Virus record (IMG/VR): IMGVR_UViG_3300043411_001076
Source: a virus
Lineage: Duplodnaviria > Heunggongvirae > Uroviricota > Caudoviricetes
Direction: 5' to 3' (one strand)
DNA: 64,000 bases
Shown: positions 5,439-42,297 of the stretch, in pieces
Numbering within the stretch: position 1 is the stretch's first letter
How the letters are laid out: the number at the start of each line of letters is the position of its first letter
Position numbers and translations under genes: made by a program
The notes under the pieces: generated by a model
Database searches by the model: none
What the model saw: only the letters and a program-made list of their open reading frames with translations
Told to the model about the DNA's origin: nothing

Positions 5439-5580
5439 TTTCTATGTTACGTTTTTGTAGGTTCTGCGATATAATAGGCATCAGAAAGGTAGTAGCTAAT
5501 AGCTACTGCGGCGACTTGGATCGTTTTAAGGTTCTATCTATATGTGTAGTTGAACCTTAAAGCATTTTTTGGGAAAGAAA

Positions 5581-22281: not shown

Positions 22282-23088
22282 TCAAGTAATTATAGTCAAA
22301 TTTTTATGTTTTTTTGATTTATATATTTGATTTGCTAGATTAGGATCTAAACCTAATAAATAAACATCTAGACCTTTTGTCCTTCCCTCTGCTAGTTTGT
22401 TCAACTGATTTACGATATATGGCGCATTGGACAGAGGGTTTCCATTTAAGAACAGATTTTTTAATTTAGGAAAATTTAAATCCTCAATTCCATCTAGATC
22501 GTAGATTTTATTTAATACAAGATGTATGTTTTTCAAATTAGGTGCTGTTATATGAGATAATTCAGATATGTGACTTATATTGTTATGGTTTAACAACAGA
22601 TTTCTTAATACAGGAGCATCCATTTGCGGGATTTTCGATATTTTATTCTTTTCTAAATTTATTCTTATTACCTTAGATAAGTCTAATGTGGACAGATCAT
22701 CAATATCTGTAAGCTTATTATTAGAAAAATCAATCTCTATCAAGTTAGGAGTAATAGCATCTCCTAATCCTTCTATTGATGTGAGATTAGCGTAGTCATA
22801 AGCAAGGACTTCTAAATTAGGAAAAGTAAGCCCTGCCATCCATTGTAAATCATCAACCGCACCGCCTAAGTTAAAAGCATCCAAGTGTAAATAGAAACCA
22901 TACGTCTCTGATACCCAATTTATGTATATTTCTGGATCTTCCGTTAGTCTATTACATAATTTAAGATAGGCTTTTCTAATAGAAACATCTCTAGGATCAA
23001 GTTGTAATCGTCTTCCTAGAATTTCTAATTCTGCATTGGTTGATGACAAGCGAATATGAGAAGCGATTCTTTTTATTGCTTTAAACAT
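22282..23088 (-). CDS. leucine-rich repeat protein, IKKLA paralog 3
   Basis: LRR units LxxLxLxxNKIxxIxxL (e.g. LKNLFLNGNPLSNAPY, IRINLEKNKISKIPQM); N-terminal FKAIKRIASHIR. Confidence 0.7.
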   Translation of the reverse strand: MFKAIKRIASHIRLSSTNAELEILGRRLQLDPRDVSIRKAYLKLCNRLTEDPEIYINWVSETYGFYLHLDAFNLGGAVDDLQWMAGLTFPNLEVLAYDYANLTSIEGLGDAITPNLIEIDFSNNKLTDIDDLSTLDLSKVIRINLEKNKISKIPQMDAPVLRNLLLNHNNISHISELSHITAPNLKNIHLVLNKIYDLDGIEDLNFPKLKNLFLNGNPLSNAPYIVNQLNKLAEGRTKGLDVYLLGLDPNLANQIYKSKKHKNLTIIT

Positions 23089-23163: not shown

Positions 23164-26100
23164 TTACTGTTCGCATCCACCAGCAGAGCAGGCAGCTTCA
23201 CCTTGAAATGAAGTTCCATCTTCTAATTCAAGCATAAATTCATAGTTCACAGGCTTGAAATTAGAAACAATATTATTCCATAGGAATTCATCTTTTTCAG
23301 TAACTACTTCTTCTCTTGGAGCAAAGGCATAATCTTTATCTCCTGAGTAGGGAAGCATCGAGATACCAGAAAACTGGAACCTTCTATCCCATAAGAAATG
23401 TTTTACATCTTCCCATTCATCAGGTTTAACAACGACGGTATTAGACACATTATTCTTAAGTCCTGGATTATCAGTATCTCTGGCAGTTCCGTAAGCAATC
23501 CAATTAGTCTGTGTCAAGAATACCCTCTCCAAAAATTCTAAAGCCGTCATATCATTTCTTGTTACTGCTCCTTCAGGAGCTTCTACACAGAACGTAATAA
23601 CATCTTCTGTGTCATTAACCTTTTCACACATATGGGGATTTATACTCTTGAAAAATTGATAAACTGCTTCACCTGGAGACATACGAACACGTCTAAAATA
23701 TCTCTTAGCATGATGCGGATGTATTCCACTACCCACACAACCTAGAGCTAAGGACGCTGTACCTGAAGGTTTTACTGCGGTAAGTCTAGCAGCAGAATTA
23801 ATACCTAGTAGGGCAGAAAACTTTTCATTTACTTCTTTGCATAATAAGGCTGCCCTTCTCTGAAGATCGGCATTAAAAGCAATAGCAGGGTTATCTACCA
23901 TTCCCGTCATAGAAACGCCCAACAAGGCATCTCTACGAGCAAGTAACTCTGTCACTGGTCCTAAATATGGAAAATCTGTATATCCAGCTTGGCAAGTACC
24001 AATGATTGTAGCTGCCGTCACCGATTCTAAAAATTCTTCTTCTGTCTTACATGCTGCAACATTTACTTCTGATAAATTACAAAACGACCAACCACATAAG
24101 ATATCTCCAATATTGACATTAATATTTCTTTCTTTTAAGAAGATTTGGGCTTTAGAATCAACAACATAGAAAGGATTGAATTGGACCTCGCTACAATTTC
24201 CACTAACAATACCATTAGCGATTACGCTATTCGTTTCGGGCTGAGTGAGACAGTACACATCTGTTCTCTCATCCATTTTCGTAATAGAAACTATTTTTGT
24301 AATGTGTCTTTCGGGCTTATTACAATCTCTACCTCGTTCGTCTAAAACCTGTGTAAGTCTTCTTCCTTTTGCCCCAGGTAATTTAATTGTATTTTCAAAA
24401 GTTATACAATTAGGACGGCTAATAATAAGTTCGTGCATAGGTTGGCATAGATAATCTTTATGGCCACCCTTTCCATCAGGTAACTTACGATAAGCTTCTT
24501 CAGTTCTCCTATACACCTTAGAAACAATTCCAAAACCCATCAAAAGATTTTGAATATCTTCCAATAAATCTCGATTAACTTGTGAAATTCTTAATGAAAC
24601 CGTTTTCTTTTTATCCTTTCCAGAACACAAGACAGTTCCATCAGATACAATCATTCCTGCAATATAGCCAGCCACCATTTCTTTGGTTCCCTTCCAAACA
24701 ACTTCTGGAACCATTTTTTTCAGATCACTGGTAGACTGTCCCTGTAAAATATTCTCAACTACTTTATAGAAATTTGCACCCCCTATTCTCTTTTTTGTTC
24801 CATGATCTTGACTATGCCACCCCAAATCATTTTTATTATTTAATTTGAATAGTTGTCTCTGATCATTAACAATCTTATGTAGTAAATCAGATAATTCGAA
24901 GTCCGACTCCCAAATGTCTATAAACGCACTTTTACCGCTGAAACATCCATCTCCTGTAAGCATTCCGAGAATAAATCCTTGATCCCAGCTTCCCTCCCTC
25001 CCAAATCTTACAGAACCAGAGTTTAACAAAAGAGTATCCCCAACAGATAACTCATGCGTTTCCTTTCTTCCATTAAAAGTAGGGAATTTATGGTTTTCTG
25101 TTACTTTTAATCTCTGCCCATGTTCTGTCTGTATCTCAAATACTTCTGCGCTCTTTTTGGTAAGGAACGCAGAAGTTGCCTTTCTTAGTTTATTTCCCTT
25201 TAATTCTGGAAATATCAGATCCCCTTTACCAACTCTGGTATCTGTATTAACACATAAGGGTATCCCATTTTTCTCCATATCTCCGATTTTCATCCATCCT
25301 TTACTTGTAGAGATCCTAGTATCAGGATGGAAACACGGATTTGTGCCGTAATCTAGACTATCTACAAATAAGAACCCAGGCTCTCCATATTCTTTTGTAG
25401 ATCTAAATAGTCTGCTATACTGTTCAAAAGTTGCTTGACTTCTTAATAGTACTGCCGAATTATTAGCGCGAGATCTCCAAGGATGTGTTTTCCACCATTC
25501 TCCAGTTTTAGCATTAATCATTTCCTCATCATCAATAGAAAATAAGGAAATCGAAGCACTGCGACGGACACCCCCAGCTAATACAGCTTCGCTAGCTAAA
25601 CATACGATGTCATGGCATTCAATAGGTCTTAAATGCCTGCCTTGAACTGAATCTAGTACTTTCCTAATACGACGAATTGCCAATTTAAGAGGGATATGTC
25701 CTGGTGCTCTACCGCCTGATGTAGACAGGTAAGATCCTTTACCTCTTATTTGACTATAAGAAAATTCGGTATAGTAGTCTCCTTCGACATAAGACATAAT
25801 AAGTGCATGCAATGCATCTGCCCATCCTTGGATCGTATCTTCTACGATATGATGTCTTACTTTGTCTTTATTAATATGCTTTAAAGGAGCTAATTGCGCG
25901 ACATGGTGCTTCTGTACTGAAAACCCTGTACCGCATCCACAGAGAAGTAAGAAAAAGGCTTCTTTAAAGAAAGAAAAACGATTGCATGGGCTAAAGCTAC
26001 AATTATAAATTCGTTCATTGATCGCTTTTACGCCCTTACCACCAAACTGCATAGATCGCATACTTGGAAGGGAAACACGATCTCTAACTTTATTAAAAGC

Positions 26101-26607
26101 CCATCTGATATCATTTTCAATTTGAGGAAACTTTTCAATGTGCATATTCTGTACACGGTCTATACTTTCCCCATGTACTTCGCGTCTAAATACTTCCTTC
26201 TTATACTGAGAATATTTAGCAACGTGAATGAAATCTGCTATTACTTCTTTAGGTAATCCTGGAAGCCTTTGATTTCTAAGTTCACTTCTCTTATTTCTAT
26301 AAAGAATATAAGACTTGGCTGCTTGGGGTAGATTAGCGCCAACTAAGATGTTTTCGACAATATCTTGAATAAGTTCTACATCAACGAAATCTTTATTTTC
26401 GGTGTCATTTGTCTTAGACAGTAAGATATACTGTGAAACTGCCTTACAAACATTATTTGTTAAATCTTCTAAATTATAAGTTTTAACATCATCACAAGAT
26501 AGTAAGCATTTATAAATAGCGTCTTTTATTTTTCCCTTTTCAAACGAGACAAGAGAACCATTTCGCTTTTTCACTAAAAAATTGGTATCGTAAATCGACA
26601 TGGACAA
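23164..26607 (-). CDS. ribonucleotide reductase catalytic subunit (ATP-cone; class II-like NPC[S]E active-site motif) interrupted by an intein
   Basis: N-terminal ATP-cone-like region; extein junction GTNP|CSEVQF matches RNR active-site NPCGE; C-terminal redox pair C-x4-C (AACSAGGCEQ); 380-aa Hint+LAGLIDADG insertion. Confidence 0.85.
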   Translation of the reverse strand: MSMSIYDTNFLVKKRNGSLVSFEKGKIKDAIYKCLLSCDDVKTYNLEDLTNNVCKAVSQYILLSKTNDTENKDFVDVELIQDIVENILVGANLPQAAKSYILYRNKRSELRNQRLPGLPKEVIADFIHVAKYSQYKKEVFRREVHGESIDRVQNMHIEKFPQIENDIRWAFNKVRDRVSLPSMRSMQFGGKGVKAINERIYNCSFSPCNRFSFFKEAFFLLLCGCGTGFSVQKHHVAQLAPLKHINKDKVRHHIVEDTIQGWADALHALIMSYVEGDYYTEFSYSQIRGKGSYLSTSGGRAPGHIPLKLAIRRIRKVLDSVQGRHLRPIECHDIVCLASEAVLAGGVRRSASISLFSIDDEEMINAKTGEWWKTHPWRSRANNSAVLLRSQATFEQYSRLFRSTKEYGEPGFLFVDSLDYGTNPCFHPDTRISTSKGWMKIGDMEKNGIPLCVNTDTRVGKGDLIFPELKGNKLRKATSAFLTKKSAEVFEIQTEHGQRLKVTENHKFPTFNGRKETHELSVGDTLLLNSGSVRFGREGSWDQGFILGMLTGDGCFSGKSAFIDIWESDFELSDLLHKIVNDQRQLFKLNNKNDLGWHSQDHGTKKRIGGANFYKVVENILQGQSTSDLKKMVPEVVWKGTKEMVAGYIAGMIVSDGTVLCSGKDKKKTVSLRISQVNRDLLEDIQNLLMGFGIVSKVYRRTEEAYRKLPDGKGGHKDYLCQPMHELIISRPNCITFENTIKLPGAKGRRLTQVLDERGRDCNKPERHITKIVSITKMDERTDVYCLTQPETNSVIANGIVSGNCSEVQFNPFYVVDSKAQIFLKERNINVNIGDILCGWSFCNLSEVNVAACKTEEEFLESVTAATIIGTCQAGYTDFPYLGPVTELLARRDALLGVSMTGMVDNPAIAFNADLQRRAALLCKEVNEKFSALLGINSAARLTAVKPSGTASLALGCVGSGIHPHHAKRYFRRVRMSPGEAVYQFFKSINPHMCEKVNDTEDVITFCVEAPEGAVTRNDMTALEFLERVFLTQTNWIAYGTARDTDNPGLKNNVSNTVVVKPDEWEDVKHFLWDRRFQFSGISMLPYSGDKDYAFAPREEVVTEKDEFLWNNIVSNFKPVNYEFMLELEDGTSFQGEAACSAGGCEQ
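24196..25335 (-). mobile_element. intein (Hint domain + LAGLIDADG homing endonuclease) inserted at RNR catalytic Cys
   Basis: Starts CFHPDTRISTSKGW (block A), LAGLIDADG motifs ILGMLTGDGCF and IAGMIVSDGTV, ends VYCLTQPETNSVIANGIVSGN followed by +1 Cys (blocks F/G); aa 425-804 of host protein. Confidence 0.75.
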
Positions 26608-28943: not shown

Positions 28944-29786
28944 TTATTTCAGACTCAAAAACTCATTAATTTTAAGCTTTAATCCGTCTATTGCCTTATG
29001 TAAAGAGGTACTATTGATACCTAGCTCCTCTGCTATTTCTTTTTTCTTCTTACCAGAAGACAGTAGTTCAACAATCGAAACCACAGAATCCCCCATACCT
29101 CTTTTTGTTTTAATCCACTTTTTAAAATCACTCATAATCATTTCTTCATTTGAATAATCCGAATCTTCTGTTGAGTTCTCTGTATAGTTTTTAGGTATCT
29201 CTGCTTTTTCCTTCATACCTCTTTTGATTTCTTTCTTTCTAAAATTTTTATACACACTACCAGCTACCATGTGAACATAACTTCCAAAACTTCCTCTACT
29301 AGGATTCCATGCCCCCTTTCCCTTGTTTCTAACAAGTAATCCCTTAAATACCTCTTGTAATAAGTCTTCTACCGATAAACCCTCTGACACTGCCCTTTTA
29401 GCATAATAAGCGTAAAATATCTTTTCTATATCTTTTTTCTTCTTTACTATATCTATCCCTGTATTAGATGGAGAGGTGACGCTCTCATCATCTACTACTA
29501 ATTCAGAATTATCTGCGTTACACGCCGCACATGTCTCTTTATAAGTTTTAATATTTTCTAAAATTCTATATATTGTCATGTCTGTTTTCGTATTTACCCT
29601 AAAATAGTTAAAAAATGTAGTGGCGGCCTTACTTTTCGACTGTTTCAGGAAATCTTTTACTGAATTATAGACAAACTCCCCAATCTTAAGCTCATACCTT
29701 TTTCTTTTTCCTTCCCCTTTTTCCTTAATCTGTACAGGTAATGAACCATCTTCGTATCTTGAATATAAAATATAAGTACTTTCCAT
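28944..29786 (-). CDS. sigma-70 family (ECF-like) RNA polymerase sigma factor with N-terminal extension
   Basis: Region 2: DLLQEVFKGLL...WNPSRGSFGSYVHMVAGSVYKNFRKK (cf. ECF D[LV]xQExF ... FDPSRGSFxxWL); region 4 HTH KKEIAEELGINSTSLHKAIDGLKLKINEFL. Confidence 0.7.
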   Translation of the reverse strand: MESTYILYSRYEDGSLPVQIKEKGEGKRKRYELKIGEFVYNSVKDFLKQSKSKAATTFFNYFRVNTKTDMTIYRILENIKTYKETCAACNADNSELVVDDESVTSPSNTGIDIVKKKKDIEKIFYAYYAKRAVSEGLSVEDLLQEVFKGLLVRNKGKGAWNPSRGSFGSYVHMVAGSVYKNFRKKEIKRGMKEKAEIPKNYTENSTEDSDYSNEEMIMSDFKKWIKTKRGMGDSVVSIVELLSSGKKKKEIAEELGINSTSLHKAIDGLKLKINEFLSLK

Positions 29787-29792
29787 AGCATA

Positions 29793-29830
29793 CCTCTAAA
29801 ATAAAAAAGACCCTATATAGGGTCTTTTAC
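29793..29830 (-). terminator. intrinsic terminator-like hairpin in the sigma-gene leader
   Basis: AGACCCTATATAGGGTCT palindrome; on - strand followed by TTTTTTATTTT, then SD AGAGG and the ATG at 29786. Confidence 0.55.
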
Positions 29831-29951: not shown

Positions 29952-30581
29952 TCAATTTTCTTTATTTATAGCGTCTCTAAGTACTCTTAGTGCTAAGGCA
30001 TTGACATCTTTAGGTATAGAAGGAATAGTATAGTCTGGAAGTTTCTTAATATCTTTACTATTCTTTGGAGGACGGCCTGCTTTTCTTTTTAGCTGACCGT
30101 TATGTTTCAAATATTCGTTTACTCTGTTATCTACGAGATCGTTTACGTCATCATCGGACATGATGGGAGTAGATGTTACTTCCTTTAACTTTTCTCTTAG
30201 ATCTTTCAATTTACCTTTTGAACGTACAATGATATCGTCTTCACTATCTTCATCATAATCCTCTATAGTCGGGTCTTCTATAACAAGACCTGACTTTTCA
30301 TCTACAACGTCATCTTCTAATATATTAAAAGCCTCTGCAAAGAAAGATGGGCCTCTGTTATTAAATCTCTCAACCCAAGATAAAAGAGTTTGAAGACTAA
30401 TTCCCATGTCCTTATGTATAGTATTCATATAAGTATCAATAGATAAAAGATATACTGCAAATGCTTTTCTCTGCCCATCTTTTGTTGGGAAGTTTAAAGC
30501 TATATGAAATAATCCTTTTCTAGAGATACCCCATTTTTTATAATGTACTGCTAATTGCTTCTGTAATATTTTTTTAGGCAC
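29952..30581 (-). CDS. hypothetical protein with C-terminal AT-hook-like motif (RKAGRPPK)
   Basis: 209-aa ORF; acidic middle; KRKAGRPPKNSK. Confidence 0.45.
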   Translation of the reverse strand: MPKKILQKQLAVHYKKWGISRKGLFHIALNFPTKDGQRKAFAVYLLSIDTYMNTIHKDMGISLQTLLSWVERFNNRGPSFFAEAFNILEDDVVDEKSGLVIEDPTIEDYDEDSEDDIIVRSKGKLKDLREKLKEVTSTPIMSDDDVNDLVDNRVNEYLKHNGQLKRKAGRPPKNSKDIKKLPDYTIPSIPKDVNALALRVLRDAINKEN

Positions 30582-30596
30582 GATAAATTCTCTCTG

Positions 30597-31217
30597 CTAA
30601 ATAAATTTTAAACCTTTTTCTATAATCCTAGTTATCTCAGGATGGGGATAACCGTTAATCATAATACTATCGTGCTCGATTTTTATCTCTATTCCATCGT
30701 CACCAATAGGCCAATTATTTACAAGATGTTTATATCTATCCGATAAAATATGAACTACTTGATTGTCAGAACCAATATATCTACGTTTTCTACTTGCCTG
30801 ATCTTTTTTAAACAAGCCATCAACTATGATATCTGCATTATCAATAAGATCTGACTCACCATTCTTATTTTTAAGTCTTTTTAAAGCATTAAGAGTAAAT
30901 CCAGTAAAAATCATAACGGAAAGATCATGTTTCTTTAGTTCTTTTGCCAATACTGCAAGAGACTTTGCTTGTGCAAAGGGTTCACCACCAATAAAAGTAA
31001 CACCTTCGATAGTGTCTTTTACTTTTAAAATTTCTTCCAAGAGAAATTCTACGGTAACAGTTCTGTTTTCTTTAAACTCTAATAAATGAGGATTACAACA
31101 ATCAGGGCATCTAAAAAAGCATCCTTGCACCCATAGGGCAAATCGTTTTCCTGGCCCTTCAACCTCTGTGACTGAGTTGTAGTATCCAATATTGAGAGTT
31201 ACTTCGTTCAATAACAC
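30597..31217 (-). CDS. glycyl-radical-enzyme activating protein (PflA/NrdG-like radical SAM)
   Basis: EGPGKRFALWVQGCFFRCPDCCNPHL matches activase signature DGPGxRxxxFxxGCxxxCxxCxN (Cx3Cx2C cluster). Confidence 0.7.
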   Translation of the reverse strand: MLLNEVTLNIGYYNSVTEVEGPGKRFALWVQGCFFRCPDCCNPHLLEFKENRTVTVEFLLEEILKVKDTIEGVTFIGGEPFAQAKSLAVLAKELKKHDLSVMIFTGFTLNALKRLKNKNGESDLIDNADIIVDGLFKKDQASRKRRYIGSDNQVVHILSDRYKHLVNNWPIGDDGIEIKIEHDSIMINGYPHPEITRIIEKGLKFI

Positions 31218-31226
31218 AGAAACCTC

Positions 31227-32402
31227 CTACAGAACATTTTTTAAGAATTGAAGCGGATCTTTTGGGGACTTCTTTAATCTCCGCTCCTTATAGAATAGTG
31301 CTTTTTTCCAGTCTTTTATTAAATCATATATCCAAGTAGTATCCTTAAAGAAGGATATGTTCTTTTCGTCTGTTGTTTCTCTTAGTCGTATTAGTATATT
31401 TTTAAAAAATACGGACGATCTTCTCTTATTATTGTCATAAGGTAAATGAATTATAAAGTCTATTTTCGATCCATAATTCTTAACATCTGTAATTTCTATG
31501 ATTATATTTCCTTCTAATCTATCAAACGTGAATGAAATTAATCTATCTTTCCTATCCCAATTCTTATGGAAGGTAAACGTAAACCAAGTCGGCTTTACAT
31601 TCAAACCAAGTAGACAGATAATTTCACTATGACTTATATCGTCAGAATTTTGTTTCAAATGTTTTAAAAATCTTGGGGAAACATGAGCATCACATGACAT
31701 ACCGAAAAACGTAAGGCTGTCATTTTCTTTTGGTCCTATTTTTAATCCGCATATCTGCTGACTTCTCAACATCGGCTTTCTATAAGCGGGTCGCTTACTA
31801 CACGGGTTAATTCCCAAATAAGCCCTATCTTTTAAAGATAGATATAATATGAAGTCCAAAGAATCACATCTGGTATTTATAGCGTAACTAAAATCGAATC
31901 CTTCTATAAAATTTGAACCTTTCAAAAATTTTATAATATCATCCAAACTTATTATCTCTGCACAGTCTATTTTATCCAGTAAAGCGACTAAAGATTTAAG
32001 ATATACCTCATGTTCCCTATAAAAAGAAATCGTTGTATACCTGTCTAAAGACTCATAGATAGTTCCTACCAAGTATCTCGGTAAAACATGAGATGGGGAA
32101 CTTTCTAGTATCATTACTATTTTATTATTTTTGGCCCATTTATTTTCTAAATCATCAAAATAAATACGTTCTAATATATCTGGGTCAGAGTCTGCGTCTC
32201 TGATTTCCCATAAAATCTCCAAAGATTTACTATCCCCTTGCTCTACGAACATAGTTATATTATCTTGTATAATACTCTTATCATCCTCCCAATGTTCGTC
32301 TCTAAAAGATTTTCGCTTATGGTATGAATAAAGGTCGTAAGTTGCTAATTTGTCGCTTAAATCAGATAATAATCTTAGCCTATCTATATCAGTATTAAAC
32401 AT
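31227..32402 (-). CDS. hypothetical protein (391 aa)
   Basis: Long ORF; no motif recognised. Confidence 0.5.
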   Translation of the reverse strand: MFNTDIDRLRLLSDLSDKLATYDLYSYHKRKSFRDEHWEDDKSIIQDNITMFVEQGDSKSLEILWEIRDADSDPDILERIYFDDLENKWAKNNKIVMILESSPSHVLPRYLVGTIYESLDRYTTISFYREHEVYLKSLVALLDKIDCAEIISLDDIIKFLKGSNFIEGFDFSYAINTRCDSLDFILYLSLKDRAYLGINPCSKRPAYRKPMLRSQQICGLKIGPKENDSLTFFGMSCDAHVSPRFLKHLKQNSDDISHSEIICLLGLNVKPTWFTFTFHKNWDRKDRLISFTFDRLEGNIIIEITDVKNYGSKIDFIIHLPYDNNKRRSSVFFKNILIRLRETTDEKNISFFKDTTWIYDLIKDWKKALFYKERRLKKSPKDPLQFLKNVL

Positions 32403-32470: not shown

Positions 32471-34636
32471 TCAGCCAGCATTAAACTCTGTAACGAGTTT
32501 TTCAATGTCAGCTTTCAATAGAGTCTTCTTATCAAGAAGTTCTGTAAGTAATTTATCGAATAATGGACGATTATCAGCCAAAATCGTCTGGCAACGTTTT
32601 TGCTGTTCTTTTAGAATATTATCAATGTGAACATCAATTTTATTCGATAGTTCAGCACTTACACTAGGACGATCATCTTTGTCGTGAACATGACCGACAG
32701 GTGCTGTAATTGCTCTCAATGTAGCATCTGACATACCCAACCGTTCTACCATGAGTCTAGCGATATCAGTAGCTTTTTCGAGATCGTTCGCACAACCAGC
32801 CGAAAAATCACCATAAATTAGGAGTTCTGCTTCACGACCGCCAAATAGGATGCAAATGGTATCCAGGAATTGACCGCGTGTTTGAACGTATTTCTTATCA
32901 CCTGTCTCATGCAATACGTAACCAAGAGCACCTTCTTTATCAGAAGCAATGGTAATTTTTTCAATAGGTTCACTATTTGTAGTCTTTAGTCCAATGATAG
33001 CATGGCCTACTTCATGAACTGCAATTACCCTTTCTTCTTTCACACTCAACTTAATTTTTGTAGATGCCGATTTAGGCAAAGCAGCCATACAATTTTCTTC
33101 TGTAAGCAAAATTTCTTCGGCTTTAATGAACTTTCCCTTCTTTGCAGTTTCTTGAGAACGTCGAATGGATTCACGTTTCAATCCGCGTGCAATAGCGTTC
33201 AAGTGATCACCTGAAAACTTGAGATTGTTCTTAACGTCAGAGTATCCGCCTGTACGATCTACGAGAAACTTAATCAGTTCGTCAGACAGATTAAGATTGA
33301 ATTTTTTACGGTACAGATCAAGGATGATCTTTCTATCGTCTTCTTTTGGGTAAGGAATCTCAATCTGCAATTCAAAACGACCAGGACGTAACAGTGCAGC
33401 ATCGATACTTTCCACAAAGTTTGTGGTGGCTACGATAAATACAAGATCTTCCTTACGGAATCCGTCCATTTCTGTGAGTAGTTGGTTAACCATTGAGTGT
33501 TCAACACCGCTACCACCGTAAGTACCACGGTGAGTTGCAAAGCTATCAATTTCGTCAAACACGATAATTGACGGTGCCGATTTTCGTGCCTTCATAAATA
33601 CGTCACGAATGTTTTTCTCTGAATCACCAACCCACTTACTTTTTAGTTCTGGACCAGAAACAATAATGATTGTGGCATCCAATGCAGTGGCCATAGCCTT
33701 TGCAAAGAATGTTTTACCCGTACCTGGAGGTCCAGAGAAAATCATACCTTTTGGTATAATTTCTTCAATCTGCTTAACCTCATCTACAGAGGTTAGTGTC
33801 TCCTTATAATTAAGGAGTTCAAGAATTTCGTTTTTAATGCGTTTTTTTACTTCTGAGTACCCACCGATGTCATTATCCAAACTTACGTTTGGAAAATCTA
33901 CATCTGAGGTGATAGTCATATTACGAAGTTCTCGGTACAATGCATTTGTCTGAGACTCGTCATCTTTATTATAATCTAAACGATCATGAAAAGACTCAAG
34001 GACTTCACGTAGTCTAACAACGTTCATCCCAGAAACATATTTATACAATTTGAAAGGATTAAATTCTTTATGTCCAAATTTCTTGGCCTCTGTCTGAGTA
34101 ATTACACAAGGCAGAATATCACGTGTAATTCCAGAAATCGTTCTCTTAGCCGAGAATAGATGTTCAATAGGCTCTGGAATTTCCAAAGAAGGATCTTTAA
34201 ACATGACGATACGAACATCAGGATTATCGTAGACAGCAGCCATCAATTCTCTACTCGTATCTGTCATACCTGATTTAGAGGTAGTAACTGCAACGTCAAG
34301 GTGAGGAATAAACAAGCAGATATTAGATTCACCAGAGAAAATTCTCACAAGCGTTTGTGCCAACAAGTGTCGCATAATATTTCCACCACTTTCAGGATCT
34401 GGACCTGCAATGAGGTGGCTGGTAAATTTAAATGCTGTATTGTCTTTCAATGCTGTACGAATAAGTTTATACACATAAGTATAAAGTTGCTTCTCACATT
34501 CAATGAGAACGTTCATTCCCTTTACAATCTTATCAACGATCCATTCCAAATCTTCACGATATGCGATTTGTACAGCATTCAAATGTGTCAATTTTGCAGG
34601 CAGTGAACTGATCTGTGTCAAAGTCTTATCCGACAT
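32471..34636 (-). CDS. FtsH-like AAA+ ATPase / M41 zinc metalloprotease, no N-terminal TM region
   Basis: Walker A GPPGTGKT, Walker [37 protein letters not shown] (HEVGHAIIG), [33 protein letters not shown] matches the FtsH protease core; ORF-track start 34729 is TTG, ATG 34636 preceded by AAGAGAGAAAAGAAG. Confidence 0.8.
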
Positions 34637-34736
34637 CTTCTTTTCTCTCTTCTTTTCTTGTTTTTGATTAACACCCACAGACAGTCTCTGTGAGTTCTTA
34701 GTATAAAATAATTGATAATGAATGTGCAAATAAAAA

Positions 34737-35744
34737 CTAAGACACTATTTTATCTTTTGGTAGCCCTGTATACTCATGTACATCGTTCACCTTACTATTT
34801 TTATAGAATCCAGTATAAAATAGTCGATATTCGATGGGATTTCCATCTATATCTCTAGGGACTATAAAAATAAGTGGATCTTTTTCCACAAATCTAATAA
34901 AATTGTATATAGCACACATGGTTTTATAACGTAAATGTGCTAAGGATCTACGTGTCCAATCACAATGTATGGAAGTGACATATCCAGTATCACCTGTGGA
35001 ACTAAAGTACAGTACAGAATAAATACTCACTTTATTTTTATCAGTTAATCTAAATCCTTCACGGATTGTAGATACTGACTTTAGCTGTCTCTTCATCTCT
35101 TCCGTGAGTTCATTAAATGCAGACTCGTTGAACTTTACACTACACATGGTAGAACGGTTAACATCTTTAATTAATCTAGGATCATTATAGGTATATTCTA
35201 TAGATAGATCCAAATTAAGACGGTAGACAATAGATTTTTTATAAGACTCGTTTATCTGCTTAATGGGCTTATTTTTAGTCTCTTTTTTATCTGAATCTGT
35301 AGTAGGGTCTGTTTTTTCTTCTCTACGTCTAATAGAAACAGACTCTGATATATTATTAATTTGAGGAAGTGTTTCCTGCTCCGTATTAGAAGCTGGAATA
35401 TCTATTTTGTAAGGGATAATTATCTGTCTACTATTAACGAAATCTATAGTAATATTTTTAACATACTCTTGGGATGCAAAACTATGTACAATAGTATCAA
35501 AAGCTATTTTCAACACTGTTACAATATTATATAAATCTTTACTTATAACAGGTATGATAAAGTCATTATCAAAATGAGAATACATTAAAAAGTGACCATA
35601 TCTATTATTTCTTTCAAAACCAGAAAATAAGTAAATACGATTTCTAAGTAAAAATTCTACCTCGTTCTTCTGTATAGCAAAACGTTCGTATAGTCTATGC
35701 ATAGCATGTGATGACCAACGAAGTTTATTAAAGTTGATGTCCAT
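34737..35744 (-). CDS. hypothetical protein
   Basis: 335-aa ORF. Confidence 0.5.
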   Translation of the reverse strand: MDINFNKLRWSSHAMHRLYERFAIQKNEVEFLLRNRIYLFSGFERNNRYGHFLMYSHFDNDFIIPVISKDLYNIVTVLKIAFDTIVHSFASQEYVKNITIDFVNSRQIIIPYKIDIPASNTEQETLPQINNISESVSIRRREEKTDPTTDSDKKETKNKPIKQINESYKKSIVYRLNLDLSIEYTYNDPRLIKDVNRSTMCSVKFNESAFNELTEEMKRQLKSVSTIREGFRLTDKNKVSIYSVLYFSSTGDTGYVTSIHCDWTRRSLAHLRYKTMCAIYNFIRFVEKDPLIFIVPRDIDGNPIEYRLFYTGFYKNSKVNDVHEYTGLPKDKIVS

Positions 35745-35777
35745 TTTCTTCTTTCCTAGAGAGAATTTCCCCCGTGG

Positions 35778-36233
35778 TTAAATTAAAAGATGGAATAAAG
35801 AATCGTCTACTCTTCCATCTTTATGTCCAAAAATAAAGAATGTCCCTGATGAGTCATCTTCTATCTCTATAGACACCTCAAATCTAATTCCTCTTGTTAA
35901 ATTAATTTCACTTGGTATTAACTTATAATAATGCAACGGATACTTTATGCTAGGTAAATTTTTCAGAACACATCTTAAAGTAGTTCCTTCCCTTTTCCCA
36001 AGTAGACTAAAAGAATCCATTGGTTTATCTTTATAAATTTGATTTTCACAGGAAAAATATTCTCTCGTACTTTTTACGTCAGTTCTTCTAACTAAAATGA
36101 TATTTTCTTGAAATAACATACTCATTCGTTTATAAATAGAAAATAGATGATTAACTGCTGTATGGTCATCTGGATTTTCTATTAAAGTATGAAGTAATTG
36201 GATTCTTTTATCAGAACTTTGTTCTGAAGACAT
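35778..36233 (-). CDS. hypothetical protein
   Basis: 151-aa ORF. Confidence 0.45.
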   Translation of the reverse strand: MSSEQSSDKRIQLLHTLIENPDDHTAVNHLFSIYKRMSMLFQENIILVRRTDVKSTREYFSCENQIYKDKPMDSFSLLGKREGTTLRCVLKNLPSIKYPLHYYKLIPSEINLTRGIRFEVSIEIEDDSSGTFFIFGHKDGRVDDSLFHLLI

Positions 36234-36236
36234 AAG

Positions 36237-37202
36237 TTATTCCAAATTTAATAAGTCAGTAATAGACTGCTTCTCGTTTTCTATCTTATTAGTTTCTTGT
36301 ATAGTATCCTGCTCTGGATCTGTAAATTCCAAAATAGGAATCTGCTTCATTTTGTGAAACATACGAGAGACAAACTTTCTCGCTCGTTCCACACTCTTAA
36401 AGATAGCAACTTTCGGATCTCTATTGTAATAAAAACTAAAAGAATCAAACTCCTCACCGATACCCCTTCCTACCTCTACCTCATAAATAATGTATGAGTC
36501 TCTAAAGTTAAAATCAATCAAGACATCCAAATCATCTCCGAAGGTAAAATCCATACCGTCAATTTCACAAGCATTCTCCTTAATATTGGAGAATTCTTTC
36601 ATAATCTTTCTAATATCAGAACAAGCACGTCTTGATAATAAGACTTTTGACATTGCATACGAAATCTGATGTAAAAAAGGTTCCCAATTATAGTCATGGG
36701 GAGGAGGAATAGTTAAATTTTCAGTATGGATTTTCTGACCTTCACTATAAAAATATAAAATTCCGTCCAAATATTCAGTGTTGCTCTGATCCGTAGAAAT
36801 AAATATTTCTATAGATACACGGATACTATCTGTTGTATTGAAATAAATAAAATGCTTCTCTTCCAAAGATTCAGTATATACTTTATATCCTGCTAAAGGC
36901 CGAAGTTTGGACTTTATTAGAGAAGACATCTTAAATAAATTAATGGATCTATTGGGAGAATTTGAGAATATAGACATATTAGCATCCCTATTATCCTTAT
37001 TAAATCTCATCTGATTTTTATTAGGACGCTCTATAGTAGTTTCGGATTTGTCTACGGTAGAGTAGCTATGGTTTTTATATTCTTTAATAGTCTTAGGAAA
37101 AGAATCTGCTTCAACTGTGTTAGGTAGCGTCTTTTGTGTCATTTTATTCATATTGGGCTTGACCATTATACTAATTCCTTTATACTGTTCTATACTAGAC
37201 AC
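36237..37202 (-). CDS. hypothetical protein
   Basis: 321-aa ORF; start uncertain (several in-frame Met near N-terminus). Confidence 0.5.
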   Translation of the reverse strand: MSSIEQYKGISIMVKPNMNKMTQKTLPNTVEADSFPKTIKEYKNHSYSTVDKSETTIERPNKNQMRFNKDNRDANMSIFSNSPNRSINLFKMSSLIKSKLRPLAGYKVYTESLEEKHFIYFNTTDSIRVSIEIFISTDQSNTEYLDGILYFYSEGQKIHTENLTIPPPHDYNWEPFLHQISYAMSKVLLSRRACSDIRKIMKEFSNIKENACEIDGMDFTFGDDLDVLIDFNFRDSYIIYEVEVGRGIGEEFDSFSFYYNRDPKVAIFKSVERARKFVSRMFHKMKQIPILEFTDPEQDTIQETNKIENEKQSITDLLNLE

Positions 37203-37929: not shown

Positions 37930-38023
37930 TTTTATATCCTTAAAAAATAAAAAGAAGAAGTAGAGTCTTAAATCGAAAACCCCACTTCTTCTTAATAGGT
38001 TATTCTACCCAGATTGTCAAAAT

Positions 38024-39244
38024 TTATGGTGTAGGATTTGTAGGTGTATTAGCAGGTGGATCTACTACACCTGTAACATCCAAATAGTCTTGTAGACCTC
38101 TAGTTATAATCATCCCTGTATTTTTTAATACATAGGGCAAATATTTAGCTGAGTTCTCTACTTGGGTTACGAAAATATTTCCTGCTGATGCTCTATATGC
38201 TGGAGTAACACCTATAATACTAGCAATACCATCCTTAAATAATCCCTTAAGATCTTTTGCCCATTTAGTATCTGTAACTCCTGTCATTTGAGCTATCCCA
38301 AATAACATACTAGCAAATCCTTTTCCTAAAGACACAAGAGGATTTGATCCATCGTCCCTATCGTCATCGTCATCATCGTCGTCTTGATCACGATCATCAA
38401 GTCCATCATCTTTTATATTAAAAGCCTCCTTTATCTTCTTCATAGGTAAGGGAGGTGGTTTAATTTTAGGAATGTGGGTTATTTCCTGTAATGTTGAGTC
38501 AAGAACCTTCTTTACAGACTGTACTAAAGAACCCACTTCTTTAGAATGCACTAATTTTTCATCTATACGAATAGGTATATACTTAGAAGTTATTTTTGCA
38601 GACTCTATATCTAATCTCAGACTAATAGTTATACCGAGAGTATTTAATACAGTAATTGCATTTTCTAACTTAGTCTCCCCTTGGATACGTTTTATTTGTT
38701 TTTCTTTTTGTGCATGGCTTATAAGTGTATTTACTCTATTTTTACCAAGGCATATGGGTAAGAAACTTCCCTCAAGGATATTCCATTTAACCTCTATAGC
38801 TTCTTTCCCATAATTTAACTCAACATTAATACCCTTAATTTTATTACTATTCAAAATATCCCTAATTCTTTGAACTACTTCTCTGACGAAATGTTGTCTC
38901 GGAAATTCACTATTTGACTCTATCTCTTCAATCATTTCAAGCTTATCGTCATCAAAAGAATTTAGCATCAATTTCATGTATTCTTGATTACTTTTTCCAG
39001 ATATAATCAATGCGGGATCTATAGGTGTACTCTCATTTTCTTCTTCTAAAGAAAAACCCATAGAGCCATCTGGATTTTGGGTCATTCTAATTTTTCTTTG
39101 ATTTTGTCCGATTAGATCGGTAATATTGGAAAGACTTGGTAATTGTCCTTGTGGACCTGCATTTTGTCCTTGTGCGGCTATTTTCGAGATTCCTTCAGCA
39201 CCTAATGTGTGAAAGCCTAATTTCATGAAATCTTCTATGTTCAT
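38024..39244 (-). CDS. hypothetical protein with poly-Asp tract
   Basis: DDRDQDDDDDDDDRDDG; start moved to ATG (MNIEDF) preceded by GAGGAA; ORF track gives 39292. Confidence 0.5.
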   Translation of the reverse strand: MNIEDFMKLGFHTLGAEGISKIAAQGQNAGPQGQLPSLSNITDLIGQNQRKIRMTQNPDGSMGFSLEEENESTPIDPALIISGKSNQEYMKLMLNSFDDDKLEMIEEIESNSEFPRQHFVREVVQRIRDILNSNKIKGINVELNYGKEAIEVKWNILEGSFLPICLGKNRVNTLISHAQKEKQIKRIQGETKLENAITVLNTLGITISLRLDIESAKITSKYIPIRIDEKLVHSKEVGSLVQSVKKVLDSTLQEITHIPKIKPPPLPMKKIKEAFNIKDDGLDDRDQDDDDDDDDRDDGSNPLVSLGKGFASMLFGIAQMTGVTDTKWAKDLKGLFKDGIASIIGVTPAYRASAGNIFVTQVENSAKYLPYVLKNTGMIITRGLQDYLDVTGVVDPPANTPTNPTP

Positions 39245-39327
39245 TTTAAATTCCTCAAGGTGTATCGACTGTACAGTATTACATAATACCATAGATTATA
39301 AAATTATTAGTTACGAGGATTAAGCAT

Positions 39328-40119
39328 ATGAGTAAAGGTCTTTCAGAAACTTTAGAGTTTGCTTTAGATAGCAAATCTATCAGACCGTTAGCAAAAAGAT
39401 TAGACCGTATCCTTTCAGAAAAATATGATCTTGAAGGTTATTTAACAGACGAATCTGGATACCCTCAACTTGTATTACAAAAAGGCGATAAAGCAATTGT
39501 TTTAGAATCTAAACAAGATAACCAAGATTCTGACTGCCTTTGGACAGCCACTACATATTATGAAGATGAGTCTAGGGCGTATGTTTGGAAGAGAGACGTT
39601 GTAAATCAAATACTTTGGCTAATTTCTAATAAAAAACCACAAAAATATGAAGTTAATGAACCTATTCGTACTGATACTACAAAAAATGAACCTATAAGAG
39701 GTACTAAAAATAATATGTCTACAGGTAATCCAACAAATAACAAACTTGCCTATGTAAGAGACGTTTTTGATGTTTTATTTAGAATCATGGAAGAAGAGTC
39801 TTTTCCGAAAGAAAGCAGAATGGACCTTATTACTATGGGAGTTAATGAGTTCATAGGACTGAAAGGATTTAATACTATTTTTGAAAATATCCAAAAGAAG
39901 AGAGAAACTAATGCGTTGAGTTCAAAGATCAATCAACTAGAGGAGCTAGTTAAACAACTATCAGCTAGTAATAAACCTGCCCCAGGTGGATTTACAATTA
40001 AAAAATCTAGCGGTGGGACTCGTCAAGAAATTATCCGAGAGGATGATGAAGACGAAGATGAAGATGGTGAATTAAACGATTTCGACCAAGAACTAGAAAA
40101 CATCGAAGACGAAGAGTGA
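39328..40119 (+). CDS. hypothetical protein with acidic C-terminus
   Basis: 263-aa ORF; EDDEDEDEDGELNDFDQELENIEDEE tail. Confidence 0.5.
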   Translation: MSKGLSETLEFALDSKSIRPLAKRLDRILSEKYDLEGYLTDESGYPQLVLQKGDKAIVLESKQDNQDSDCLWTATTYYEDESRAYVWKRDVVNQILWLISNKKPQKYEVNEPIRTDTTKNEPIRGTKNNMSTGNPTNNKLAYVRDVFDVLFRIMEEESFPKESRMDLITMGVNEFIGLKGFNTIFENIQKKRETNALSSKINQLEELVKQLSASNKPAPGGFTIKKSSGGTRQEIIREDDEDEDEDGELNDFDQELENIEDEE

Positions 40120-40129
40120 GGGCAATAAT

Positions 40130-40621
40130 ATGAAAATCAAAAAACCTAGAGTATTTCTTTCTAAAGAATTAGAGGGTCATAAGAACCCTCTAAGAGTTTC
40201 CCTTCAAGAACTAAATAAATTTGCAGAGACACCAGAATATATCTTTTGGTTATGTCATGGAATTAACTTTATTAATTCCAATGCAAAAGAAGCAATTTGG
40301 AATCCAGTTTTTGAATTTATCTATGAAGAAGATAAAACCATGCTCAATAAATGTAAACTAAAACATATTATAAGAGCAATTGAAATAAAAGACTTGGACG
40401 CAAAATCTGCTTTATGGGCCGTACAACCCCCTCTTATCATGTATGAGTTGTCCAGATTTTCTGAAATGAAGCCTGAACTAAGGCTTCCTGCAAATAGCGA
40501 GATTTGGACATACTTTGACACATTCATCTCTAATTTGAATGTACACTCAAAACTCAGTTTAGAAGAAATGACCCATTTCAATCAAGAAGTAAAACAAGAG
40601 TTGTCCGAGATTGTTGATTAA
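40130..40621 (+). CDS. hypothetical protein
   Basis: 163-aa ORF. Confidence 0.45.
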   Translation: MKIKKPRVFLSKELEGHKNPLRVSLQELNKFAETPEYIFWLCHGINFINSNAKEAIWNPVFEFIYEEDKTMLNKCKLKHIIRAIEIKDLDAKSALWAVQPPLIMYELSRFSEMKPELRLPANSEIWTYFDTFISNLNVHSKLSLEEMTHFNQEVKQELSEIVD

Positions 40622-40690: not shown

Positions 40691-42235
40691 ATGAACGACA
40701 ATCAAGAACTCGGATGTCTGTATCTAAACCCAGAAGATTTACAAAATTTCTTCTGGGCCTCCCTCTCTGAGAGAGGTCACAAAAATGAACCTACCGCTTG
40801 GTCATTTAGACAGGCTATCACATGGTACATTGAACTTTATAGTAAAGGTTGGGACTCTGTCCCATTCTTTTTTGTTTATGACTTGGGATTGCTTCTTATG
40901 GAAGCTAATAAATTTCAATTCCGAAACTATTCGGAAACAGATGTTACGAAAAACACAGAAGAAGTTAACGCCCAGATTAGTCGTCGTGTAACCTATCAAA
41001 ATAGAATCTTAAATAGATTTTTGGCTCTCCCTGTATTTAGTGAATTACATGATTTTGTGGTAGAATCGAAAAACCCAAAATTGCAAATTGCAGCTATTTT
41101 GTCTTACTGGTTAGAACCAATTAAGAAATCTAACATTGAGTCTGTGCAGACATCTGCACAAATTCTAAGACAACTTACAAGTCCAGCTATTACTGTAGAA
41201 GAGGCTAGAGTAGCGGTAGAACAGTTACTAGAAGCCCCTAATTATTTCTATGATCAACTTGAAGAAGTTATCCGAGTAATGTCGGAGACACATCTGTCAA
41301 ACTTAATCCAGCCCGAAGACATTTTTATTATTAAAAATATCGAGGCGTTAAGCAGTGACGCCCTGCGTCTTTCTGCAAAGCAAGTAGTAGGTATTGAACA
41401 ACAAATGGGAGATGTAGACCATCCTCCCGTACATATGAGAAAAGAAGCACCCCAAGCACACGTTAATCTTTCAGACGTAGGTTTATATCCTCAAGGTGGA
41501 TTAGATCAACTTTCTAATAGAGGAAGTATTGAAAATCTTGTAAGAACTGAATTGGCTTATGTAGACGATAAAGCCGATATTGATATGTTTACTATGCGTT
41601 ATCTTGAGGGTGAGCTTCTATACTACACTAGAGATGAGGCACAGCTTCTAAGAAGAAACAGAACTACTCATATTTCCCTTGAGTTCGGGCACGCTCACCA
41701 TATCAAATACCCTAACCATCCAACTCAAATGTCTATTCTTTTACGGGCTATGACAGCCCGATTAATTGACGATTTATTTAAGTTATTTGCTAATGACTCA
41801 TTAAAAGTTATTTTACATATCCATGATATTAGATCTTCTGATGCTGTAGAACTGTGGAAAATCCGATTCAAAGATCAGTTGACTAGAAGTGATATGCAAT
41901 TAAATGTTGTAAACTCTCCTCCATTTGCTAATGTGAAAAAGAAAGACTTTAAAGCTTTGCAAGAAGAAACTGCTAAATACATTGATACTGGTAGATACTC
42001 TACATTAATACGCATTTCTCCGTTAGAACCTCTTTCTAATGAAGAATTAAGTCTTGCAGGTAGACAGGGATTAAATATCCTGCATCTACAATGTCCTTTC
42101 AAAAAGCCTGCTGAGAAAAAAGAGGACGTACCAACCCAACAAAAATTTATTGGTGTAACTTCAGATGATAGAAATATTATCGAAAGCCTACACGAAGCTA
42201 GAAAGTATCTCTTGTGGACTCTCTTAGGTTGCTGA
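40691..42235 (+). CDS. hypothetical protein (514 aa)
   Basis: Long ORF; followed by bidirectional terminator. Confidence 0.55.
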   Translation: MNDNQELGCLYLNPEDLQNFFWASLSERGHKNEPTAWSFRQAITWYIELYSKGWDSVPFFFVYDLGLLLMEANKFQFRNYSETDVTKNTEEVNAQISRRVTYQNRILNRFLALPVFSELHDFVVESKNPKLQIAAILSYWLEPIKKSNIESVQTSAQILRQLTSPAITVEEARVAVEQLLEAPNYFYDQLEEVIRVMSETHLSNLIQPEDIFIIKNIEALSSDALRLSAKQVVGIEQQMGDVDHPPVHMRKEAPQAHVNLSDVGLYPQGGLDQLSNRGSIENLVRTELAYVDDKADIDMFTMRYLEGELLYYTRDEAQLLRRNRTTHISLEFGHAHHIKYPNHPTQMSILLRAMTARLIDDLFKLFANDSLKVILHIHDIRSSDAVELWKIRFKDQLTRSDMQLNVVNSPPFANVKKKDFKALQEETAKYIDTGRYSTLIRISPLEPLSNEELSLAGRQGLNILHLQCPFKKPAEKKEDVPTQQKFIGVTSDDRNIIESLHEARKYLLWTLLGC

Positions 42236-42258
42236 TACACATTATAATAAGATAAAAG

Positions 42259-42290
42259 AAAAGCCCCAATTAAGGGGCTTTTCTTTTATC
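42259..42290. terminator. bidirectional intrinsic terminator
   Basis: AAAGCCCC-aattaa-GGGGCTTT then TTCTTTTATC; between convergent genes. Confidence 0.65.
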
Positions 42291-42297
42291 TACTCAT

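Follow-up and report, generated by a model that had tools for sequence, protein, structure and literature searches.

What does an activase-like radical S-adenosylmethionine (SAM) protein do in a phage-like genome that shows no glycyl-radical enzyme (GRE) to accompany it? The question is raised by a gene at 30597..31217 (minus strand) of a stretch of 64,000 nucleotides, hereafter the window, from the IMG/VR virus record IMGVR_UViG_3300043411_001076 (Caudoviricetes). The gene starts with GTG and encodes an NrdG/PflA-like radical SAM protein of 206 amino acids (aa), here called rSAM. Activase-like radical SAM genes are routinely called NrdG in phage and metagenome annotation, and the identical protein carries an NrdG-type name at JGI. 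The initial annotation described the gene as an orphan activase, with its GRE elsewhere or with a new target. We favor another explanation, with a probability of roughly 70%: rSAM is the radical SAM component of a reduced and rearranged cassette of the FtsH ternary type in a large phage-like genome, and not an activase of an anaerobic ribonucleotide reductase (RNR).

The protein itself truly belongs with the PflA/NrdG-like radical SAM proteins, and it is not a QueE. Residues 20-43 hold the signature EGPGKRFALWVQGCFFRCPDCCNP, and its motifs include a GPGKR loop, the cysteines C33-x3-C37-x2-C40, the adjoining C41-N42, GGEP at 77-80, and a C-terminal beta-hairpin (E177...ING-P191). Fer4_12 of Pfam covers the protein end to end (model positions 1-137 of 137, E 6.5e-32) and Radical_SAM matches at 1.1e-7, so that the CX3CX2C and GGE SAM motifs of GRE activases lie in a Fer4_12/Radical_SAM core; this CX3CX2C is unique among window open reading frames (ORFs) longer than 100 aa. 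The EGPGKR string at residues 20-25 has the form of the (D/E)GPGxR substrate-loop motif. Judged by these motifs, rSAM carries every predicted element for binding a [4Fe-4S] cluster and SAM. The nearest solved structure by sequence is the pyruvate formate-lyase activating enzyme (PFL-AE, 5e-16), and a PDB fold search with an AF2 model (pLDDT 90.3) also ranked PFL-AE with bound peptide (3cb8) best, at E 4.5e-8, followed by QueE (1.4e-4) and viperin-like enzymes (8e-3). The activase-like signature that had been read from the sequence is therefore well founded.

Membership in a described activase family is another matter, and here the earlier assignment did not survive. The top NCBIfam model is NrdG (TIGR02491, 1e-28), with 100.2 bits against a curated cut-off of 126.1, and the next is PflA, with 70 against 231.75. 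NrdG2 (59 vs 131) and NrdG3 (44 vs 152) likewise remain below their cut-offs. QueE, which had been named as the alternative that could overturn an activase-like identity, gives only 19.9-23.6 bits against cut-offs of 260-300. In PADLOC, neither rSAM nor its phage neighbours matched a known defence system, and only weak hits to the pVip core were obtained (6e-5).

Relatives were sought in a collection of 5.8 billion proteins, and loci were counted by a scan of one genome per species. The search returned close relatives on phage-like contigs (95-62% identity) together with a large group of bacterial proteins of 190-220 aa, 40-55% identical over their full length. The scan gave at least 565 bacterial loci, and the main hosts are Myxococcota, Planctomycetota, Verrucomicrobiota, Rhodobacterales, Paenibacillus, Neobacillus, and Treponema. 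A hidden Markov model (HMM) of the bacterial family matches rSAM with 261 bits (7e-80). Relative to the NrdGs of E. coli and phages, the family signature comprises an invariant T-E-x-x-E-G-P-x-R, a G-C-x3-C-x2-C-C-N motif in which the second C of the pair stands in place of an aromatic residue of NrdG (Tyr or Phe), an E-G-x4-G-G-E-P motif, and the conserved C-terminal E...ING-P hairpin. Across 61 members, E20, G21, P22, and R25 are invariant and G23 almost so; G21, P22, G23, and R25 are also present in E. coli NrdG and PflA. In a neighbor-joining (NJ) tree, bacterial sequences from two operon types, termed A and B below, and three phage sequences form a single clade that is sister to the NrdGs with an adjacent NrdD, while PflA lies outside the family and NrdG, and QueE is the outgroup. 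A phylogeny against the NrdG and PflA clades had been proposed for deciding between the two; rSAM falls in neither. From sequence comparison, the family is best described as a sister clade to NrdG, separate from both NrdG and PflA.

For the genomic context of this family in bacteria, all ORFs of 82 bacterial loci were clustered, and conserved neighbours were annotated. FtsH is found within 10 kb in 35 of the 82 loci (type B), for which the full order is rSAM - fvmX6 - fvmX5 - FtsH-like AAA+/M41 - X3-analog - fvmX7 - bpMoxR - ivWA. This gene set is exactly that of the Pfam "FtsH ternary system" families. Where a ternary-type FtsH is present, fvmX5 occurs in 35/35 loci and fvmX6 in 34/35. The bacterial proteins nearest to the window rSAM (P0008, 51% identity; P0007, 55%; P0010, 52%) derive from operons that contain rSAM, fvmX6, fvmX5, FtsH, X3-analog, fvmX7, and bpMoxR, as far as the contig extends, and ivWA is additionally present in the operon of locus L108. 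Four loci (L037, L057, L074, and L087) have an rSAM-fvmX6 pair with no FtsH within 10 kb, which suggests that, among its partners in the type B lineage, rSAM is most tightly linked to fvmX6.

FtsH ternary systems are predicted bacterial conflict systems with an FtsH-MoxR-vWA composition (vWA, von Willebrand factor A domain), and they were defined computationally by Kaur, Burroughs, Iyer, and Aravind (eLife 2020; PMC7159879, section 21). In the simpler subtype, the vWA is fused to an all-alpha N-terminal domain, and the system carries a "distinctive radical SAM"; neither NrdG nor phage-borne copies are mentioned in that paper. The family and its association with FtsH systems are already known as a prediction. 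The window protein answers to the description of this distinctive radical SAM, and it very probably belongs to the ternary-system rSAM family.

Two further window genes extend the correspondence, so that rSAM, an FtsH-like protease, and an ivWA protein are orthologous to three parts of the ternary system. The gene is no orphan: it has conserved partners, and the FtsH-like protease, which had been taken as an unrelated neighbour, is one of them. The FtsH-like AAA+/M41 protease (32471..34729, minus strand; Pfam AAA 6.7e-42, Peptidase_M41 1.1e-40) reaches 919.6 bits (E 1e-278) with an HMM built on the FtsH proteins of bacterial rSAM loci, and it aligns with the FtsH of the canonical operon L108 at 48% identity over 712 aa. 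As in ternary FtsH proteins, an extra N-terminal region without a P-loop precedes an active-type AAA+ domain and an M41 peptidase, with a single Walker A (GPPGTGKT) at residue 333, a Walker B (VFDEID), and the zinc site HEVGH. An N-terminal membrane anchor is not evident, and the true start is probably internal, at approximately 34678 or 34636. The ivWA gene (40691..42235, plus strand) encodes an all-alpha N-terminal region fused to a divergent vWA of the kind found specifically in FtsH ternary systems (Pfam ivWA 6.9e-26, ivWA-helical_N 1.4e-9). The bacterial ivWA HMM matches it with 209 bits (1.3e-63), and its identity to the ivWA of L108 is 29% over 391 aa (1e-48). For rSAM, identity to the copy in a canonical operon is 51%.

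The same arrangement is found in two phage relatives with rSAM proteins that are 82% and 62% identical to that of the window. FtsH is 78% and 65% identical in these relatives, compared with 23-52% for the flanking lineage-specific genes. Because rSAM and FtsH are conserved far above their neighbours and their catalytic motifs are intact, the comparison argues for functional enzymes rather than a relic.

Several observations weigh against the proposed assignment to a ternary-type cassette. MoxR, fvmX5, fvmX6, fvmX7, and X3-analog were undetected in the window with HMMs from the bacterial loci and with profile-profile comparison, for which a positive control (fvmX6a vs fvmX6b) reached 99.4%; the best E value of a bpMoxR-type HMM was 0.15. 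Given these absences, the phage cassette is incomplete, or its other parts have diverged past recognition. The ivWA gene lies 9.5 kb from rSAM on the other strand, and the gene order is unlike that of the bacterial operon. In 28 of the 82 bacterial loci, no AAA+ gene occurs within 10 kb; many of these are short contigs, but full 20 kb loci are among them as well. Support values are lacking for the tree, which was built by simple NJ. The GRE search in the phage was confined to the 64 kb of the window and approximately 6 kb past one end, and the whole genome is probably much larger. Finally, a search of the accessible literature on the family and the systems yielded only the computational paper of 2020 (PMC7159879) and no experiments.

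The association of the family with unfoldases is broader than the FtsH operons. A second arrangement, type A, occurs in 19/82 loci (among them L002, L004, L030, L032, L033, L038, L044, L052, L053, L059, L066-L068, L071, L073, L075, L077, and L080) and has the order superfamily 1 (SF1) helicase - PIN_4 - 385 aa coiled-coil protein - ClpB-like AAA+ - rSAM. The helicase is of the AAA_11/12 type, and the five-gene operon is hosted by Firmicutes, Treponema, Rhodobacterales, and Thermogutta. Its AAA+ protein resembles the PADLOC candidates PDC-M37B and DolB (ClpB-like hits); the PADLOC matches are limited to this protein, and the operon as a whole matches no listed PADLOC system. A shared downstream partner was sought, and none is conserved, the genes downstream being heterogeneous. 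The type A operon looks like an undescribed candidate conflict system. Taken over both types, the loci show that the family habitually adjoins an AAA+ unfoldase of the classical clade, whether FtsH-like, ClpB-like, or other. Two IMG/VR contigs (L090 and L091, the latter with a low GC of 32%) have rSAM followed directly by an AAA+ protein of approximately 550 aa, whose similarity to the FtsH model is confined to the ATPase part of that model (72-92 bits).

Could rSAM nevertheless be a true class III RNR activase (NrdG) with its NrdD in an unseen part of the phage genome? NrdG is the top-scoring curated model and the sister clade in the tree, NrdD and NrdG are encoded by thousands of phages, and most of the phage genome lies outside the window. 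However, the score under the NrdG cut-off and the searches for a partner speak against it. GREs carry the radical glycine at the C-terminus. The motif R[VIT]xG[YFW] has no genuine site in any window ORF longer than 100 aa, and phmmer with a phage NrdD and E. coli PflB gave no match in the window, which bears out the earlier statement that it contains no GRE. Nor was a GRE found in the approximately 6 kb past its right end, in the phage relatives, or at the 82 bacterial family loci. The same phmmer search, together with a scan for a C-terminal RVxGY, revealed a GRE in every control locus; as controls served E. coli nrdDG and pflAB, phage JeffSchatz, and 14 IMG/VR NrdG-type loci (26-34% identity). 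NrdD is immediately upstream in all 14 IMG/VR NrdG-type loci and in the controls. None adjoins the family gene in the 82 bacterial loci, in the phage relatives, or in the window. The family is widespread in Myxococcota, Planctomycetota, and Rhodobacterales within conserved operons unrelated to RNR, its CCN motif and C-terminal hairpin are not found in NrdG, and the phage already has an oxygen-independent class II RNR. Of the two possibilities left by the initial annotation, a new target is favored by this evidence, and an NrdG with its NrdD elsewhere in the genome is quite unlikely. A loose motif scan also picked out an RTGGY string in the FtsH-like protein, which was rejected as a glycyl-radical site since it is internal and far from the C-terminus; we take it to be the ordinary FtsH lid motif (R-x-T-P-G-F-S-G-A).

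The RNR of the window (23164..26607, minus strand) is RTPR-like and of class II (best model TIGR02505, 2.2e-55), and its C-terminus (...ACSAGGCEQ) holds a C-x4-C pair. This is in agreement with the earlier reading that the local RNR is class II-like, and such an enzyme is not the substrate type of rSAM. An ATP-cone lies at its N-terminus, and its catalytic NPC|SE cysteine marks the exact insertion point of a LAGLIDADG intein, whereas the 750 aa version in the phage relative L106 has no intein. That rSAM gives a 5'-deoxyadenosyl radical to this RNR, for a cobalamin-independent initiation, is the least probable explanation considered and would be very surprising. In the window and the two phage relatives alike, the RNR does share the strand of rSAM and lies approximately 4 kb downstream of it, and in Neobacillus an RNR-barrel protein of 534 aa directly follows a family rSAM, but RNR adjacency is seen in just 1/82 bacterial loci (L004), and synteny among three closely related genomes can simply reflect common descent. 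Between rSAM and the RNR of the window stand five genes and two terminator-like hairpins, and the phage RNR is of the ordinary RTPR-like kind, with none of its catalytic cysteines missing.

An unlikely alternative is that rSAM acts on a nucleotide or other small molecule, as QueE and viperin do, and that the effector of the cassette is a toxic or signalling metabolite that it makes. QueE and viperin-like enzymes are the next-best folds, weak pVip hits were returned by PADLOC, and nucleotide-enzyme neighbours occur occasionally, namely thymidylate-kinase-like genes and the RNR-barrel protein in Neobacillus and Paenibacillus, and Tmk in L106. These neighbours are sporadic and unconserved, whereas the conserved ones are AAA+ unfoldases and proteins of unknown fold. 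In sequence and fold, rSAM is clearly nearer to PFL-AE and NrdG than to QueE or viperin, and the GPGxR substrate-loop motif of protein-acting activases is invariant in the family. If rSAM were instead a decaying or decoy leftover, without catalytic role, from a host defence operon that had been captured, this would account for the fact that only 3 of approximately 8 components are recognisable and that the gene order is scrambled. Against such a remnant, which we consider very unlikely, stand the intact cluster and SAM motifs of rSAM, the intact Walker A/B and HEVGH of FtsH, and the rank of these two genes as the best-conserved of the block across the phage relatives.

The Neobacillus locus deserves a description of its own. 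In Neobacillus sp. PS3-34 (L004, 8716-10320), the 534 aa protein matches Ribonuc_red_lgC at 7.6e-60 and keeps the NVCGE thiyl motif but lacks both a C-terminal Cys pair and a Gly-radical motif; the gene after it encodes a thymidylate kinase. GLLGSLNL stands at what we presume to be the place of the second redox cysteine of the class I/II motif.

For the ternary-type cassette, a mechanism can be outlined in which rSAM acts on a protein. This mechanism is tentative, and we would put it slightly short of even odds. Cleavage of SAM by rSAM would produce a 5'-deoxyadenosyl radical, and this radical would strip a protein or peptide of a hydrogen; as with GRE activases, the hydrogen would most likely come from a backbone C-alpha. 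The likely substrate, to judge from motifs and gene neighbourhood, would be a protein or peptide of the cassette and not the RNR. The target may be the adjacent lineage-specific partner, which would be fvmX6 in bacteria and a 391 aa protein in the phage; alternatively, it may be a polypeptide that is unfolded and presented by the FtsH-like machine. An effector would be armed or altered in this way, and the modified product might itself serve as the effector or regulate it. It is plausible that a phage uses such a cassette in competition with other mobile elements or to interfere with the host's own system.

A more far-reaching proposal, which we regard as doubtful, is that the sister family of NrdG may represent a previously undescribed class of enzymes that generate protein radicals or modify peptides. 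In this scheme, an AAA+ unfoldase (FtsH- or ClpB-like) would present a chain from which rSAM abstracts a backbone hydrogen, and the product would constitute the effector step of a conflict system. Such a product could be a cross-link, an epimerised residue, or a radical of the glycyl type that breaks the chain on exposure to air. A huge-phage lineage would then have captured a minimal FtsH-rSAM-ivWA core and supplemented it with partner proteins of its own, to be turned against the host or rival elements. The compact and strongly conserved FtsH-like/rSAM/ivWA core offers an entry point to the substrate of the "distinctive radical SAM", and the presence of parts of a putative anti-invader system in a phage calls for an explanation.

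The layout of the phage block is compact. On the minus strand, the order is 335 aa gene, FtsH, 391 aa gene, rSAM, and 209 aa gene, with gaps of 7, 68, 9, and 15 nt. The 391 aa protein (31227..32402, minus strand) lies between FtsH and rSAM, its gene ends 9 nt before the rSAM start, and it has only two representatives among 1.84 billion proteins; its position makes it a candidate partner or substrate of rSAM. The 209 aa gene (29952..30581, minus strand) starts 15 nt after the rSAM stop, has only a weak helix-turn-helix-like hit, and is the final gene before a terminator-like hairpin with a T-run (29805..29828, minus strand). Three lineage-specific genes of 335, 151, and 321 aa (34737..37202, minus strand) precede FtsH in the same tight string. 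The gene had been placed between a sigma factor and the FtsH-like protease; both are indeed near, although one ORF intervenes on each side (209 aa and 391 aa, respectively).

Terminator and promoter calls derive from a consensus scan only, which gave 14 terminator-like sites against 6.5 expected. The hairpin at 29805..29828 and a nearby promoter-like site with an 11-of-12 match (29940-29913, minus strand) set a boundary between the FtsH-rSAM string on one side and the sigma-like gene with the RNR on the other. Upstream of the string is another terminator-like hairpin (37952..37993, minus strand), which is itself preceded by a 422 aa gene (38024-39292, minus strand). The ivWA unit runs opposite to the string and begins 35 nt from the 422 aa gene. 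It consists of two small co-directional genes of 263 aa and 163 aa (39328..40621, plus strand), which are immediately upstream of ivWA and are kept in the phage relatives, and of ivWA itself, and it is closed by a terminator-like hairpin with an 18-bp stem (42250..42291, plus strand).

Homology of these neighbours to bacterial components was also considered. The 391 aa protein was rejected as a homologue of the 385 aa coiled-coil protein or of fvmX6 (BLASTP E 0.044, hhalign probability 0.1%). The 335, 151, 321, 422, 263, 163, and 209 aa neighbours were rejected as fvmX5, fvmX7, or MoxR, with no profile-profile match above 20%, and no X3-analog homologue was found among window ORFs of at least 35 aa. 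An AAA_5 protein that is CobS/MoxR-like and not of the bpMoxR type (62245-63291, minus strand; Walker A GTSGCGKD) is paired with a divergently transcribed gene for a 680 aa vWA protein just past the window end (L115, 4199-6241). The two form a second MoxR-vWA-type pair, approximately 20 kb from the ivWA/FtsH/rSAM block.

The window has a GC content of 32% and no tRNA genes. No close or near-identical match to it was found among 50,697 phage records, and the rSAM family and ternary-type FtsH occur in no deposited phage searched. A single-sequence scan of IMG/VR with rSAM gave no match, and a profile scan gave three family members and 14 ordinary NrdGs. The window encodes PolA, a DnaB-like helicase, an SNF2 helicase, an intein-containing UvrD-like helicase, thymidine kinase, leucine-rich repeat (LRR) proteins, and many ORFans. 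The best match of PolA is an uncultured huge phage of 485 kb (35% identity over 91% of the query). The source is likely a large phage-like element, a statement kept at this strength because structural genes are absent from the window. The UvrD-like helicase (43173-48125, minus strand; 1650 aa) is interrupted by an intein (Intein_splicing/Hint hits) and has a long N-terminal extension. Cargo that is unusual for a phage-like element, namely an ADP-ribosylglycohydrolase-like protein, a match to PHROG phrog_850 "RNA-binding protein" with an HNH-like stretch, and LRR proteins, is located at 1723-3054 (plus), 5569-7194 (plus), and 22282-23088 (minus). The sigma-like gene (28944-29786, minus strand) has a sub-threshold Sigma70_r2 match (22.9 bits vs a cut-off of 24), its own promoter-like site, and terminator-like hairpins on its flanks, and it is approximately 50% conserved in both phage relatives.

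Compared with known enzymes, rSAM shares with QueE a small radical SAM core of the COG0602 type and ranks QueE second among fold matches, whereas the QueE signature is missing and the context has no queCD or dpd genes. PflA (PDB 3c8f/3cb8) has the same partial TIM-barrel radical SAM core, is the best match among solved structures by sequence and by predicted fold, and shares the GPGxR loop, which PFL-AE uses to hold the glycine loop of its substrate; in contrast, identity is 27-28%, rSAM is shorter, and no PFL-type partner is present. NrdG resembles the family in its small size, GPGxR loop, CX3CX2C-N, GGEP, and DG...GSxNQ motifs. It differs in that the family has approximately 45 extra C-terminal residues as a conserved hairpin, which NrdG lacks, and in that the third cluster Cys is followed by an invariant Cys in the family but by Tyr or Phe in NrdG. 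A large NrdG-sister family unconnected with anaerobic RNR is coupled to AAA+ unfoldases in predicted conflict systems, at several hundred bacterial loci and in a huge-phage lineage.

Among multi-gene systems, the type A operon has an rSAM of the same family directly after an AAA+ unfoldase, whereas its partner set is wholly different, with no FtsH or ivWA, and it is not in the window. The closest counterpart is the FtsH ternary system. The low-GC (32%) phage-like host of the window contrasts with the high-GC bacterial loci, its order FtsH-X-rSAM contrasts with the bacterial rSAM-X6-X5-FtsH, and its ivWA is separate, in an opposite unit. The shared parts are nevertheless orthologous: the window rSAM is 51-55% identical to copies in complete operons, the FtsH-like protein is 48% identical over its full length, and the ivWA has the N-terminal helical domain that marks the simpler, rSAM-bearing subtype. 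Against this background, the placement of the family as sister to NrdG, the type A operon, and the reduced phage version of the ternary system appear to be new here.

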